Virus record (IMG/VR): IMGVR_UViG_2563366948_000003
Strand: one strand, 5' to 3'
DNA: 44,197 bases
Source of the DNA: a virus
Taxonomy: Duplodnaviria; Heunggongvirae; Uroviricota; Caudoviricetes
Shown in pieces: positions 21,099 through 25,188 of the stretch. The first letter of the stretch is position 1. Every line of letters starts with the position of its first letter. The position numbers were made by a program, and so were the translations under genes. A model generated the notes under the pieces. The model saw only the letters and a program-made list of their open reading frames with translations. It was not told the origin of the DNA and ran no database searches.

Positions 21099-21749
21099 GT
21101 GGTCAATGATATGGCAACGCTTAAGGACCTTTCCAGTCAGTTAAGACAGCTGCAGAAGCAAATACCGTTTGCGACTGCCCAGGCTATGACTAAAGTGGTT
21201 CGCCAGATAGAAGCGGCCCAAAAAACAGCATTTGAGCGGAATCTGGATAATCCAACACCTTTTACAGTTAAATCGGTTGGGTCAGTTGGCGCCAGGAAAA
21301 ACAGCCTTCGTGCGAAGGTGTTTGTTCGTGATACTGCTGCTGGTTACCTTGAACCCTTCGAGTTCGGCGGAGAGCACAAGCTTAATGGTAGTGCTTTGCT
21401 TAACCCGAAAGACATAAAGCTTAATAAATACGGCAACCTGCCGCGTAATAAGCTCTCTCAGCTCAAAGCAAAGGAAAATGTATTTGTAGGTGAGGTGGAT
21501 GGCGTTAACGCTGTCTGGCAGCGTAAGAAACCGATGAAAGCTAAGAAGCGACGGGCCAAGCGCTCCGCTAATGGGACGCGAAGACCGAAACGTAAACAGC
21601 GTTCTCCAAAGCTTTTGATCCGGTTTGGTGATGCGCTACCTGTGACTCCAGTGCTGGGGTATATGGATAGGGCCCGTACCATGGCGAACGCACTGCTACC
21701 GTCTGCTTTAAATCAGGCGATAGCAGAAGCCATCAGGACGGCAAAATAA
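21099..21749 (+). CDS. Hypothetical protein with highly basic C-terminal region
   Basis: 216-aa ORF. Lys/Arg-rich segment KKPMKAKKRRAKRSANGTRRPKRKQRSPK suggests nucleic-acid binding. Confidence 0.4.
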   Translation: MVNDMATLKDLSSQLRQLQKQIPFATAQAMTKVVRQIEAAQKTAFERNLDNPTPFTVKSVGSVGARKNSLRAKVFVRDTAAGYLEPFEFGGEHKLNGSALLNPKDIKLNKYGNLPRNKLSQLKAKENVFVGEVDGVNAVWQRKKPMKAKKRRAKRSANGTRRPKRKQRSPKLLIRFGDALPVTPVLGYMDRARTMANALLPSALNQAIAEAIRTAK

Positions 21750-21759
21750 AAGCAGTAAC

Positions 21760-22263
21760 TTATAAGTTAATTTCGCAAGCTTTTATGAAGCTGTTTACTG
21801 CAGTTGTCGATCCAGAAACATTGGCTGACATGGAATGCTGGTTTCCGCCATCCTTTGTTTGCACACCAACTAACACTTTGGATTTCGCCCCCTGAAGCTG
21901 CTTAAGCACTGTTTTTAGTTGGTCCGCGTCATCCGATTGAATCTGGAGGCTCTGAACATTACGTCTTGAAAGGGTAGCATCGAGCTTCACTGCGGTATTC
22001 CCGTCGACCTTCATTATCAGGTCCATTGGTACCTCTGATAGTGATTCGGTGCTTTTATCCATTTCAACGTATGCCGCCGATAGCTTTTCTTTAGTGCAGT
22101 CAAACACAATGGCGCCATTGTCGGATGAAACCTCGCCAAGCATCATTGCTTTCTTACCACCAGAGAAAAGGTCATCTTCAGTATTAGTTACCCACTGGGC
22201 ATGAGCAATTGGTGATGCCAGCACTGCGGCTACGAAAGTTATTTTGATTATATTGTTACCCAT
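21760..22263 (-). CDS. Secreted hypothetical protein (signal peptide; opposite-strand moron)
   Basis: 167-aa product from the ATG at 22263 (AGGAGA RBS). N-terminal signal peptide MGNNIIKITFVAAVLASPIAHAQW. Antisense to the late operon. Confidence 0.5.
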   Translation of the reverse strand: MGNNIIKITFVAAVLASPIAHAQWVTNTEDDLFSGGKKAMMLGEVSSDNGAIVFDCTKEKLSAAYVEMDKSTESLSEVPMDLIMKVDGNTAVKLDATLSRRNVQSLQIQSDDADQLKTVLKQLQGAKSKVLVGVQTKDGGNQHSMSANVSGSTTAVNSFIKACEINL

Positions 22264-22406
22264 TACATTCTCCTTGTATTGAATAGGAATAATCATAGTC
22301 GGAGCGAATGGTCGAAGCCAATAAAAAAATGGGTCCTTCCTGAGACTTTTGTAAGGTACGGGCATTGCGCGCCGCGGTGTTTTCCTAGCTACAACTTTCA
22401 GATTTG

Positions 22407-22554
22407 TGTCCCATGTCCCACCTCTGGCGATCATTACGGACACCTCGCCAGCTCTGGCTATTCCAGTTTATTCCAGTGGGACATTCTGGTGGGACATGGC
22501 AAAAATGTCCCAGGCGAATGTCCCACCCCAGAAAATGTCCCAGGTGATGTCCCA
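22407..22554. repeat. Array of eight TGTCCCA heptamers (six direct, two inverted) upstream of small terminase; putative cos/pac recognition elements
   Basis: TGTCCCA at 22407, 22414, 22506, 22519, 22536, 22548. Inverted copies TGGGACA at 22477 and 22490. The last copy abuts the terminase-small ATG. Confidence 0.5.
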
Positions 22555-23123
22555 TGACCACGATGAACCAGAGTCAGTACGCACAACATTCAGGTGTGGA
22601 TCGCAAAACAATTGGTCGGTGGATTAAAGCCGGGCGCTTCATTGTGATGGACGGAGACCTGATTGACGTAGAGGCCAGCGATGCGGCATTGAAGAAAAAC
22701 CGCGATGGCAAAGACCCGCGCGCCTCGAACGCGAAGAAAAAGAAAACTCCCGTCGTTAGCGATAACGATGATGACGGTGATGAAATCAATAAAACTGTCC
22801 GCCAGATAATGCTCACTGAAGGGGCAGATCTTTCGAGAGAGGAAGCGGGACGTATCCGCGAGAATTACATGGCCCTGCAGGCAAAGCTGCAGTATGAAAA
22901 AGACAGCGGCCAGCTTATTGAGCTGACAGCAGCCGAGGAGGTTTTATTCAACGCCTTTCGCCAACAGCGTGATGCCTGGCTTAACTGGCCGTCCAGGGTG
23001 GCGCCGCTAATGGCTGCTGATCTGGATGTACCGGCGGACAGGATGACAGAGGTGCTGATTGAACATGTCCACAAACACATCTCAGTCCTCGGAGAGCCAG
23101 AGTTTAACCCGGCAGAAGATTGA
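22554..23123 (+). CDS. Terminase small subunit (Nu1-like)
   Basis: N-terminal HTH (QYAQHSGVDRKTIGRWIKAGRF) similar to lambda Nu1 (QLADIFGASIRTIQNWQEQGMP, recalled). Directly precedes the large terminase. Confidence 0.7.
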   Translation: MTTMNQSQYAQHSGVDRKTIGRWIKAGRFIVMDGDLIDVEASDAALKKNRDGKDPRASNAKKKKTPVVSDNDDDGDEINKTVRQIMLTEGADLSREEAGRIRENYMALQAKLQYEKDSGQLIELTAAEEVLFNAFRQQRDAWLNWPSRVAPLMAADLDVPADRMTEVLIEHVHKHISVLGEPEFNPAED

Positions 23124-25188
23124 GCGTCTTGAATTAAGCGTCCGCAAAGGCTGGACACCCCCGCCGCGTATCAGTGTGCCGCAGTGGGCAGATGACTATC
23201 GTAAGCTGGCAAAAGAGGCTGGGAGCACTTCGGGAAACTGGGAAACATCGACGGTAGAAATTGCCCGCGGACCGATGCTTGCCGCGACGGAGTCCGGGGT
23301 TCATATCATCACTGTAATGTGCTGTACCCAGTTGATGAAGACAGCACTGCTGGAAAACCTTTTTGGCTATTTTGCCCACCTCGATCCTTGTCCGATACTG
23401 CTGCTGCAGCCGAAAGAAGAAGCCGCTGAACAGTTTTCGAAAGAGCGTATTAGCCCGCTGGTAAGGGTGACGCCGGTACTGCGTAAAATCATCGGTGATT
23501 CGAAACAGAAAAGCTCGAAAGAAACCATTCTTTACAAGGCGTTCACTGGCGGATTTCTGGCGCTGGCGGGTGCTGGTAGCCCTGATAACCTTGCGCGTCG
23601 TCCGATTCGTGTCCTGCTGGCGGATGAAGTGGACAAGTACCCGATAACCCGCGAAGGCGATCCAATTGCGCTGGCCGAAGAGCGTACAGCGACATTTGGC
23701 CTGACCTGGCTGTCTGTACGCGCCTGTTCGCCGACGGTGGAGGATGAGAGCCGCATTGCTGACAGCTACGCCGACTCCGATCAGCGCCGGGCATCTGTGG
23801 TTTGCCCGCACTGTGGCCACCGCCAGTTCCCCGACTTTTTCAAACACGTTCAGTGGCCGAAAGAGGGAGATAAACACCTGACTAAATCGGCGATGCTCTA
23901 TTGCGAATGCTGTGGTAGTGGCTGGTCCGAAGGACAGCGCCTCAGAGCTCTGCAAACTATTCGATGGCATCAGACGCGCCCATTTGAGTGCTGCGGGGAG
24001 CGGCACTCACCGCTGATGGATTATGACCTTGCCTGGCGGGCGGCAGACGAGGGCAGCGTTGAAAAGGTCTGGCAATGGTCAGAGTCGGAACGGCATGCGG
24101 TCTATCGCGCAATCTGCCCCTCCTGTGGAAAGGAGGCAGTCGATAACCACCACGCGGGGTACCAGGCATCCAAGCTTTTCAGCCCCTGGCAAAAAGATAA
24201 GCCGTCGGATATTGCGAAAAAATATATCGATGCGAAGGGCGATCCGGATAAGGAACAGGCGTGGTGGAATACCCAGATGGGGCTTCCGCACCGACCTAAT
24301 CATGGGAAACAGCTCCCTGTTGATGTTCTGCTGGCGCGCCGGGAAATATTTCCGGCCGTCGTTCCGGACGGGGTGGCATTGTTAACAGCTGGAGTTGATA
24401 CCCAGGACGATCGCTTCGAAATTACGATCACCGGCTGGGGGAGAGATGAAGAATCGTGGTCGGTCGCGCATGACGTTATTTATGGTGACCTTGAGACGGA
24501 AGAACCCTGGAAGCGACTGGATGCATACCTGAAACAGATCTGGCGACGTGGTGACGGGCGCGGCCTGAATATCATGGCAACGTGCATGGACTCCGGTGGC
24601 CACCATACGCAGAAGGTATACGAATTCGCCAAAGAGCGTCTTGGCCGTCGTGTCTGGGCAATTAAGGGGGAGTCTGCACAGGGAGGTAAACGCAATCCTG
24701 TCTGGCCGACCAAACGACCATCATCGAAAAGCAAAGCCAGTTTCCGCCCTGTCATTCTGGGGGTTAACTCAGCGAAAGACGTGATACGCGGTCGCCTGCA
24801 TCTTGAGCCACCCAAACCTGGCGCCGCCGCTGCGGGTTATATGCATTTTCCTGACGATCGCGATCTCGGGTACTTCAATCAGCTGCTGGCGGAGCGACTG
24901 GTTTACAAAGTCATTTCCGGGCAGCGGTACAGTATCTGGGAAGCAATACCAGGACGAGCTAACGAAGCGCTTGACTGCCTCGTTTACAGCTATGCCGCGC
25001 TGTGCGGTCTCAAACATATGGGGTTAAAACTCAACGTCCGGGCCGCCAACCTCGAAGCCGATCCGGATAAGTTCCTGCCAGCGCCAGTTGGACAGGAAGA
25101 AAAAATCAATTACGAGCTGCCGGGTGCGGTTATTGAAGAACCAGCGCCGGTCAAACGTAAGCGAATATCGCAACTCCTGCCGAAATAA
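23059..25188 (+). CDS. Terminase large subunit (lambda gpA-like)
   Basis: 709-aa ORF with ATPase-like N-terminal region and gpA-family organisation. Overlaps the small-subunit gene. Followed by W-like and portal genes. Confidence 0.85.
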   Translation: MNMSTNTSQSSESQSLTRQKIERLELSVRKGWTPPPRISVPQWADDYRKLAKEAGSTSGNWETSTVEIARGPMLAATESGVHIITVMCCTQLMKTALLENLFGYFAHLDPCPILLLQPKEEAAEQFSKERISPLVRVTPVLRKIIGDSKQKSSKETILYKAFTGGFLALAGAGSPDNLARRPIRVLLADEVDKYPITREGDPIALAEERTATFGLTWLSVRACSPTVEDESRIADSYADSDQRRASVVCPHCGHRQFPDFFKHVQWPKEGDKHLTKSAMLYCECCGSGWSEGQRLRALQTIRWHQTRPFECCGERHSPLMDYDLAWRAADEGSVEKVWQWSESERHAVYRAICPSCGKEAVDNHHAGYQASKLFSPWQKDKPSDIAKKYIDAKGDPDKEQAWWNTQMGLPHRPNHGKQLPVDVLLARREIFPAVVPDGVALLTAGVDTQDDRFEITITGWGRDEESWSVAHDVIYGDLETEEPWKRLDAYLKQIWRRGDGRGLNIMATCMDSGGHHTQKVYEFAKERLGRRVWAIKGESAQGGKRNPVWPTKRPSSKSKASFRPVILGVNSAKDVIRGRLHLEPPKPGAAAAGYMHFPDDRDLGYFNQLLAERLVYKVISGQRYSIWEAIPGRANEALDCLVYSYAALCGLKHMGLKLNVRAANLEADPDKFLPAPVGQEEKINYELPGAVIEEPAPVKRKRISQLLPK

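Follow-up and report, generated by a model that had tools for sequence, protein, structure and literature searches.

An array of eight TGTCCCA heptamers upstream of a small terminase gene, very probably the cosB of a lambda-type cohesive-end site

Introduction

The choice of DNA by the small terminase subunit (TerS) has been well worked out for few phages, and the model of the cohesive-end site (cos) rests almost wholly on lambda, 21 and N15. The cosB of a lambda-type cos is a known kind of element. In lambda, R3 spans about bp 48-65 (PMC9026076) and R2 is inverted relative to R3 and R1; cosQ has been described as a site of 7 bp with high conservation (PMC4669245). N15 has a single R3, its gene 1 starts at bp 89, and a remote rR2 lies inside the gene about 200 bp distal (PMC4669245; PMC9026076). 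Here an array of TGTCCCA heptamers was studied at positions 22407-22554 of a 44,197-bp stretch of viral DNA (Duplodnaviria; Heunggongvirae; Uroviricota; Caudoviricetes; IMG/VR record IMGVR_UViG_2563366948_000003), the whole of which is referred to below as the window. The array lies directly upstream of the small terminase gene, terS, and is very probably a cosB, the TerS docking region of a lambda-type cohesive-end site.

Two cultured relatives are Serratia phage vB_SspM_BZS1 and Citrobacter phage phiNP. The 5' cohesive ends of BZS1, with the overhang GCATTGCGCGCC, were established by PhageTerm analysis of virion reads and by comparing a prophage polymerase chain reaction product with the phage ends (PMC7556043). 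That paper deals with the 12-nt end only and presents TerS as a helix-turn-helix protein without viral homologues, with repeats and cosB unmentioned (PMC7556043), and packaging, repeats and cosB are not discussed in the publication on phiNP. Literature searches on the heptamers, tandem pairs, cosB heptamers and the 12-mer returned no description of these repeats. Among phage satellites that bear a cos, the described Gram-negative phage-inducible chromosomal islands have no R-like repeats, and their Rpp retargets the helper TerS (PMC9026076).

Results

The heptamer array

An earlier note, made from the letters of this DNA alone, had reported eight copies of TGTCCCA, six direct and two inverted, just upstream of the small terminase gene and ending at its start codon, and an exact count confirmed this. 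The window holds 11 exact copies, eight of them clustered at 22407-22554, where copies start on the + strand at 22407, 22414, 22506, 22519, 22536 and 22548 and on the - strand at 22477 and 22490. No additional copy with one mismatch was found across 22300-22800. The copies beyond the array (11058, 12995 and 32351) are consistent with chance, 5.3 being expected window-wide. No other 7-mer in the window forms so dense a cluster (8 copies within 148 bp), the maximum in 200 block shuffles being 3-4 and once 6; with the rate taken from the shuffles, the Poisson probability of at least eight copies in 148 bp is 2.5e-19. The base 5' of the heptamer is A in seven of the eight copies and G in the eighth (80% A and 19% G in relatives), so the true site reads RTGTCCCA. 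Small overlapping open reading frames, including 22279-22557 (+) and 22385-22561 (-), which the earlier note had called spurious, fall within this non-coding stretch.

Heptamers 1 and 2 form an abutting direct tandem pair (22407-22420, +), which is followed by a 56-bp spacer (22421-22476) that is conserved in length and mostly variable in sequence in an alignment of nine distinct loci with the same heptamer. Heptamers 3 and 4 are inverted, at a 13-bp spacing (22477-22496, -), and heptamers 5-8 are again direct, at spacings of 13, 17 and 12 bp (22506-22554, +). The final copy (22548-22554) overlaps the start codon of terS and shares its last A with the A of the ATG (22554), and AGGTGA between heptamers 7 and 8 is likely the Shine-Dalgarno sequence of terS.

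cosQ and cosN to the left of the array

Upstream of the array, a cosQ-like heptamer, GGGTCCT, is found at 22331-22337 (+). It is identical to lambda bp 48473-48479, which stands 30 nt before the right end of the lambda record and which we take to be the 7-bp cosQ. The distance from GGGTCCT to the nick in the window is 30 nt by alignment with lambda or 31 nt by the BZS1 end. The window reads GGGTCCTTCCTGAGACTTTTGTAAGGTACG|GGCATTGCGCGCCGCGGTGTTTTCCTAGC at 22331-22395 and the lambda end junction (NC_001416) reads GGGTCCTTTCCGGTGATCCGACAGGTTACG|GGGCGGCGACCTCGCGGGTTTTCGCTA; the flanks of cosN also resemble those of lambda, with ..TACG|GG.. and with CGCGGTGTTTTCC in the window against CGCGGGTTTTCGC in lambda. 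The similarity of many relatives to the window starts exactly at 22330.

A blastn search with 22200-23200 against 50,697 phage records gave no match, and a short blastn query with a relaxed E-value matched the cosQ-cosN of the cultured phages BZS1 and phiNP. In the linear record of BZS1 the right end reads ...GTAAAGCACGG and the left end GCATTGCGCGCC..., with cosL annotated at 1-12. Positions 22362-22373 (+) of the window, identical to this mapped 12-mer, are the cosN core and predicted 12-nt 5' cohesive-end segment. The alignment with lambda gives 22361-22372, one base further left, so the nick position carries an uncertainty of 1 nt. Because the 12-mer is the mapped end of BZS1, the array begins 46 bp to the right of a cosN; the cosN and nick positions of the window's own prophage would follow from this homology. 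Next to the 12-mer lies a conserved segment at the position of lambda I2 (22374-22406, +), which grades into a variable stretch. No class-A viral contig (class A being defined below by TGTCCCA) ended at cosN among the contigs examined whole.

The large terminase gene, terL (23065-25188, +), overlaps the 3' end of terS; its start was taken from the RefSeq annotation of an identical Escherichia coli locus. TerL is of the lambda gpA type and has both Pfam domains of the family that goes with a lambda-type cosN (GpA_ATPase, 2.2e-64; GpA_nuclease, 2.1e-78), and gpW and then a lambda-family portal were found downstream by Pfam. These genes bear directly on the other possibility named in the earlier note, that of a pac site, at which TerS would bind the repeats for headful packaging and TerL would cut imprecisely nearby to give permuted, terminally redundant DNA. 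Repeated TerS boxes beside or inside terS are indeed typical of pac phages, and repeats do occur inside terS in some relatives. However, a gpA-type TerL with both domains, followed by gpW and a lambda-type portal, the homology of cosQ and cosN to lambda at conserved spacing, and the defined 12-nt 5' cohesive ends of BZS1 at the same sequence make a pac site very unlikely, and this part of the earlier note is not supported.

Layout of the array in comparison with lambda cosB

Positions relative to the nick were numbered by alignment with lambda, with 22361 as +1 (for the end mapped in BZS1, 1 is to be subtracted). On this scale the heptamers stand at +47 and +54 (direct), +117 and +130 (inverted) and +146, +159, +176 and +188 (direct), with the ATG of terS at +194; the ATG of lambda Nu1 is at 191, as read from NC_001416. 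The array matches the tripartite R3(+)/R2(-)/R1(+) cosB of lambda in position and orientation, each R element being represented by two to four short sites: the tandem pair is equivalent to R3, the inverted pair to R2 and the block of four direct copies to R1. The R sequence of lambda is CGTTTCC(T/G)TTCT as read from the record, and RTGTCCCA is unrelated to it; the earlier note had already remarked that the motif differs from the lambda R sites.

Four heptamers on one cut site

Related loci were collected by scanning one genome per bacterial species and IMG/VR with the pattern GGGTCCTT-N19-25-ACGGGCATTGCGCG, which gave 42 and at least 120 loci, respectively. Matches came from Escherichia, Kluyvera, Raoultella, Klebsiella, Citrobacter, Salmonella and Serratia, as well as from Yersinia, Hafnia, Morganella, Providencia, Edwardsiella, Xenorhabdus and others. 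The class of a locus was called from the commonest 7-mer found de novo after cosN, in loci with enough downstream sequence. Among 168 related loci with a common cosQ-cosN, the top 7-mer was always one of four, and each heptamer went with a single recognition-helix type in TerS; neither exceptions nor mixtures were seen. In class A, to which the window belongs, TGTCCCA goes with the helix V(D/N)RKT(I/V)(G/S/T)RW; in class B, GGTAACA goes with VSRKT(V/I)T.W; in class C, TTCACAC goes with (M/I)SRR(S/A)FYNW; and in class D, TTGACAC goes with (M/V)(S/T)RQ..Y.W. The N-domains of classes C and D are up to 78% identical, with an Arg/Gln difference in the helix and a one-base difference in the heptamer. 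Within E. coli, loci with identical cosQ-cosN but with other repeats and another TerS were found (L005, GGTAACA; L006, TTCACAC). The comparison with relatives that had been proposed in the earlier note was in effect run as well: every locus with this TerS N-domain carries the array, and the same terminase was nowhere encountered without the repeats.

The general layout is shared by the classes. In classes A and B the array mostly opens with a direct tandem pair at +47 to +56; in C and D the first copy is retained, at +48 to +58, and the second varies. Outside the compact class-B loci, each of the four classes then has inverted copies, at about +113 to +201, and after these direct copies up to terS. 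The gap between the last heptamer and the ATG is about 30-65 nt in C and D.

The heptamer follows only the N-domain of TerS, of about 50 residues, as natural swaps indicate. The C-terminal domains of TerS are of three types (C1, C2 and C3). Among distinct TerS proteins, 44 of class A have C1 and 9 have C2, 13 of class B have C1 and 29 have C2, and class D includes both C2 and C3 proteins. C1 always goes with TerL N-terminal cluster 1 and C2 with cluster 2, never the other way round, a correlation that is expected if the C-domain is the TerL-pairing domain, as it presumably is. Classes A and B are thus each found with both C-types, and the C-types track the TerL clusters. The same is seen along the sequence when the window is compared with the class-B locus L005: the two agree at 96% of positions over 22336-22385, lose this similarity after about 22400, are unrelated over about 22400-22900 (the array and TerS residues 1 to ~117), and are 80-94% identical from 22907 into terL. 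The array and the DNA-binding domain of TerS therefore move together as one cassette, and no coding sequence other than the TerS N-domain was swapped along with the array.

Several single genomes carry more than one cos site with the same cosQ-cosN and different heptamer classes: Xenorhabdus hominickii (L031, L037, L039 and L044; classes e.g. B, D, A, B), Raoultella ornithinolytica (L007, L025), Ewingella americana (L022, L042) and Raoultella scottii (L035, L036). Such genomes are in keeping with selection that favors different packaging specificities in prophages residing together. Where short contigs break off at cos, this is due to the shared repeat. One class-A locus, with a TerS 89% identical to that of the window, is on a contig labelled Vagococcus sp. 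WN89Y (L009; NZ_JBQPOM010000071.1); this Firmicute label is probably due to assembly contamination or mislabelling.

Conservation inside the array

Conservation was scored by column in an alignment of nine distinct class-A sequences of the same geometry. The heptamers are invariant in 52 of 55 columns and the array spacers in 51 of 93 (Fisher p = 9e-8); cosQ (7/7) and the cosN 12-mer (12/12) are invariant throughout, cosQ being unchanged in 10 class-A loci, and 22374-22406 is invariant in 21 of 33 columns. The length of the 56-bp spacer varies by no more than 1 bp, yet most of its bases have drifted. The heptamers are under selection as sites, being conserved while the spacers drift.

That the repeat arose by chance or by slippage and has no function finds nothing in its favor beyond the existence of the repeats, and its probability is negligible, since the Poisson value given above is so low, since the heptamers are kept while spacers diverge from Escherichia to Xenorhabdus, and since the scattered copies, some of them inverted, do not form a tandem expansion.

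Three further features of the spacer were seen. A GATC (Dam site) at 22429-22432 is invariant in all ten aligned class-A loci amid the highly variable sequence. Two direct copies of ATTCCAG (22460-22466 and 22470-22476) stand just before the inverted heptamer pair and are conserved in class-A loci of the E. coli type; they may serve a host factor or be an additional point of contact for TerS. An inverted repeat, CTGGCG..CGCCAG, was dropped as a functional feature, as it is not kept in relatives.

A compact class-B form and a satellite-like element

A compact layout is found in BZS1, phiNP and many prophages of class B (loci examined: L051:49-310, which is BZS1; L015; L027; and L053, which is phiNP). 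There three proximal GGTAACA copies are directly followed by the start of terS, at +75, and one inverted copy (about +218) and five to six direct copies with a 12-bp period lie inside terS. The internal copies encode the Gly-Asn (GN..GN..) repeats of the TerS linker, e.g., GNKQGNKTGNRSSGNKSGNK, and the compact form would thus be a case in which the constraint of DNA sites is imprinted on a protein linker.

In E. coli 2015C-4136CT1 (NZ_CP027550.1), a satellite-like element of ~17 kb is located between rcnR and thiM (about 1656300-1673539). It carries genes for an integrase, an Icd-like protein, a primase, SSB, a ProQ/FinO-like protein and a PerC-like protein, and no TerL or annotated structural genes were found in it. 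The element ends with cosQ, a slightly different cosN and ~11 copies of (T/C)GTCCCA (L174:14014-14250; about 1657870-1658110), and there is no open reading frame after this array. A distant TerS homologue (27% identity, E = 1e-8) is encoded 3.8 kb from cos (L174:9680-10213). The presence of the array without an adjacent terS or terL means that it is separable and not merely a signal for terS expression, as expected of a cis-acting packaging signal.

Two other repeats occur in the element: nine repeats of the TGTTCACC type just after the primase gene (L174:4485-4700), which are probably its replication origin, and a tandem repeat, (GATAACCC)x9, downstream of cos (L174:14559-14630). Both were considered as alternative TerS sites and rejected, as they appear to be an origin and a simple tandem repeat. 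The array of the window itself could also be read as replication-origin iterons or as centromere-like partition sites, given that iterons and parS boxes, such as the heptamer boxes of P1 parS, resemble clusters of direct and inverted 7-bp repeats of this kind. Against such a role, no rep or parAB gene is adjacent, the neighbors being a gene for a putatively secreted protein, terS and terL; in the identical E. coli locus, replication genes are found about 10 kb upstream; the repeat co-varies with TerS and with no replication protein; and the TGTTCACC cluster of the satellite adjoins the primase gene, away from the cos array. Iterons or partition sites are therefore most improbable.

Gene neighborhood of the array

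The terS gene (22554-23123, +) encodes a protein of 189 aa that matches phrog_57 ('terminase small subunit', E = 4.6e-36). Its codons 1-50 (22554-22703, +) cover the N-terminal winged helix-turn-helix DNA-binding domain with the recognition helix VDRKTIGRW. Nearly all TerS homologues found carry the name 'hypothetical protein'. Several E. coli genomes, such as those of 2018-10-1CC and ECCWS199, carry prophages that match 21700-23700 at 100% identity. One of these identical loci combines an early region of lambdoid type, including a Q antiterminator, with head genes like those of lambda and with a contractile tail.

Between a conserved upstream gene and cosQ sits a gene of 168 aa (21760-22266, -; phrog_19473) with a signal-peptide-like N-terminus, which many relatives do not have. 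With a sigma-70-like promoter site at 22321-22292 (-), upstream of cosQ, it has the appearance of a moron with its own promoter. Further upstream, just before cos and apart from the tail genes, 21099-21749 encodes a protein homologous to p72 of BZS1 (phrog_1924, annotated as 'minor tail protein'). The p72 homologue is at the same place in several E. coli relatives examined, in BZS1 and in phiNP, and its conserved position was noted for BZS1 (PMC7556043).

The array thus lies between divergent genes, and its last heptamer overlaps the start codon of terS and the Shine-Dalgarno region, as might be seen in an array of operator or activator sites for a factor that controls terS and the head genes or the divergent moron; TerS could be that factor by autoregulation, and MerR-like winged helix-turn-helix proteins such as BldC and Xis, which came up as fold matches, do bind direct repeats as regulators. 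Nevertheless, a scan for promoters and terminators gave nothing inside the array, the sole sigma-70-like match being the one upstream of cosQ. A Q antiterminator gene was seen upstream of the late genes in the identical E. coli locus, and no local promoter should then be needed. The array also persists in relatives without the moron and in the satellite without a downstream gene, the TerS N-domain is the only protein-coding sequence swapped with it, and in classes C and D the last heptamer and the ATG are about 30-65 nt apart. Regulation as the function of the array is unlikely on these grounds. In classes A and B, in which the last site lies right against the Shine-Dalgarno sequence and the start codon, bound TerS might in addition influence the expression of terS as a side effect.

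Discussion

Based on these results, the array is very probably cosB, and the suggestion of cosB-type sites for the small terminase in the earlier note is supported by several lines of evidence: a cosQ and a cosN with the mapped 12-mer of BZS1, the R3/R2/R1 layout, the co-variation with TerS in 168 loci, the conservation of the heptamers and the Nu1-like fold predicted for the N-domain of TerS. During late growth, the N-terminal winged helix-turn-helix domains of TerS would bind RTGTCCCA, one domain per heptamer. The tandem pair would act as lambda R3 does and place the complex beside cosN; the inverted pair would act as R2 and the four direct copies as R1, both adding affinity. Together with these sites, the length-conserved spacer would make the DNA bend or loop, with a TerS oligomer contacting both sides. 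The C-domain of TerS would recruit the gpA-type TerL, and bound TerS would hold TerL over cosN, ~46 bp leftward, where staggered nicks would produce the 12-nt 5' overhang GCATTGCGCGCC. Packaging would then proceed rightward from the end that contains cosB, into terS, terL and on, and GGGTCCT would act as cosQ in termination at the next cos. The heptamers and TerS residues 1 to ~117 (about 22400-22900) would together form one exchangeable cassette of packaging specificity.

Several points weigh against this reading. We infer TerS binding from the co-variation and the selective conservation, and stoichiometry, bending and the non-cross-reactivity of the four classes are likewise inferred. The 168 loci are mutually related, and the lack of exceptions therefore counts lineages rather than independent events. 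The cohesive end was mapped in a class-B relative only and is 1 nt off the lambda alignment, and no cultured class-A phage was present in the phage collection searched. The TerS of the window matched no family in a Pfam search, including Phage_Nu1, its BLASTP match to lambda Nu1 (E = 0.043, helix-turn-helix only) was not significant, and in a Foldseek search with its N-domain the DNA-binding domain of gpNu1 (1J9I) ranked third with an E-value that was not significant. A sequence search of the PDB also gave no Nu1 match, only spurious low-complexity matches to RecA fusion constructs. The structural model of TerS (AlphaFold2, 24 homologues) is of medium confidence, with a mean predicted local distance difference test score (pLDDT) of 69. 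In this model residues 1-50 form beta-helix-helix-beta-beta-helix (pLDDT about 76), followed by a disordered basic/acidic linker at about residues 52-75 and a helical C-terminal part; the N-domain is thus modelled as a winged helix-turn-helix with a gpNu1-like fold. The TerS of the satellite has the helix VTRTTVYKW, which is unlike that of class A despite the TGTCCCA-like array, and the code that links helix to heptamer is accordingly not fully understood. Finally, a scan of the stretch from the nick to terS, in the window and in close class-A relatives, gave no match to the IHF site WATCAANNNNTTR with at least 8 of the 9 specified positions correct, although sensitivity was limited, as the cosB of lambda itself scored only 11-12/13. 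A lambda-style hairpin made by IHF is therefore unsupported, and DNA bending may differ from that in lambda; an intrinsic bend or another host factor may stand in place of IHF.

A wider proposal is more tentative, and we hold it with rather more doubt than confidence. This family of cos sites may load TerS multivalently, as a filament or wrap of up to eight winged helix-turn-helix domains at 12-13-bp intervals that needs no IHF, and the array with TerS residues 1 to ~117 may be a hot-swappable cassette, with at least four mutually exclusive specificities on a constant cosQ-cosN-TerL chassis. The diversity may be kept by competition among co-resident prophages and by satellite piracy, and classes C and D may provide a code of one residue and one base. 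If this were true, the near-isogenic classes C (TTCACAC, SRR..) and D (TTGACAC, SRQ..) would amount to a readable recognition code for small terminases.

Four features appear to be undescribed: a cosB of iterated heptamers, a set of four specificities that share a single cosQ-cosN core, the 2x2 combination of heptamer classes and TerL types, and arrays that lie within coding sequence. Such a system is unsurprising in principle, but it offers an unusually clean natural case of DNA reading by small terminases. The Enterobacterales have performed a natural experiment in which the cut site and the motor are constant and each of four heptamer addresses is matched to a TerS helix. With classes A and B both on C1 and on C2 TerL types, and with C and D one base apart, specificity, stoichiometry and the need for IHF are testable by swaps. 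The family also supplies a rule of use in the annotation of cos sites, and of TerS genes now called 'hypothetical', in many prophages of enterobacteria. It accounts for the Gly-Asn repeats in certain TerS linkers as traces of DNA sites, and it draws attention to satellites that have copied the array.

MerR-like winged helix-turn-helix proteins (Xis of lambda and Pukovnik, RdfS and BldC) are among the top structural neighbors of the TerS N-domain after the DNA-binding domains of TerS proteins. Proteins of the Xis, RdfS and BldC type bind short direct-repeat arrays head-to-tail, a precedent for one domain per heptamer. They differ from TerS in being recombination-directionality or transcription factors without a TerL-binding domain.

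As in the cos of lambda (also of 21, phi80, Gifsy-1 and Monarch), the window has GGGTCCT at the same distance from the nick and homologous cosN flanks, a 12-nt 5' overhang (in its relative BZS1), a gpA-type TerL, an N-terminal domain predicted to be a Nu1-like winged helix-turn-helix, and +/-/+ repeats between cosN and terS at near-equal coordinates, with the ATG at +194 compared with 191. Between lambda and 21 the specificity resides in cosB and the N-domain of TerS, and cosQ and cosN are common to both (PMC4669245), as would likewise be the case here. Where lambda has one 16-bp R sequence, the window has two to four copies of a site of 7-8 bp, which makes eight sites instead of three, and the site sequence is unrelated to the R sequences of lambda, 21 and N15. 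Moreover, the spacer is without the IHF consensus, TerS is not detectably a member of Pfam Phage_Nu1 by sequence, and the predicted cohesive end is GCATTGCGCGCC instead of GGGCGGCGACCT.

The organization of N15 is paralleled by the compact class-B relatives, with terS at +75 and copies about 140-230 bp further on, inside terS. Their internal sites differ from those of N15 in being a multi-copy array that gives rise to Gly-Asn linker repeats, not a single inverted site, and the array of the window differs in having the long lambda-like form, wholly upstream of terS. BZS1 and phiNP share with the window the cosQ-cosN with an identical 12-mer, the TerS family (about 33% identity), the gpA-type TerL, gpW and the portal, and differ from it in belonging to class B (GGTAACA) and in their compact layout. 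Like phage-inducible chromosomal islands and P4, the 17-kb element of E. coli 2015C-4136CT1 bears a cos, here with a TGTCCCA-type array; unlike these islands, it combines a helper-like heptamer array with a distant TerS homologue of its own, encoded away from cos.

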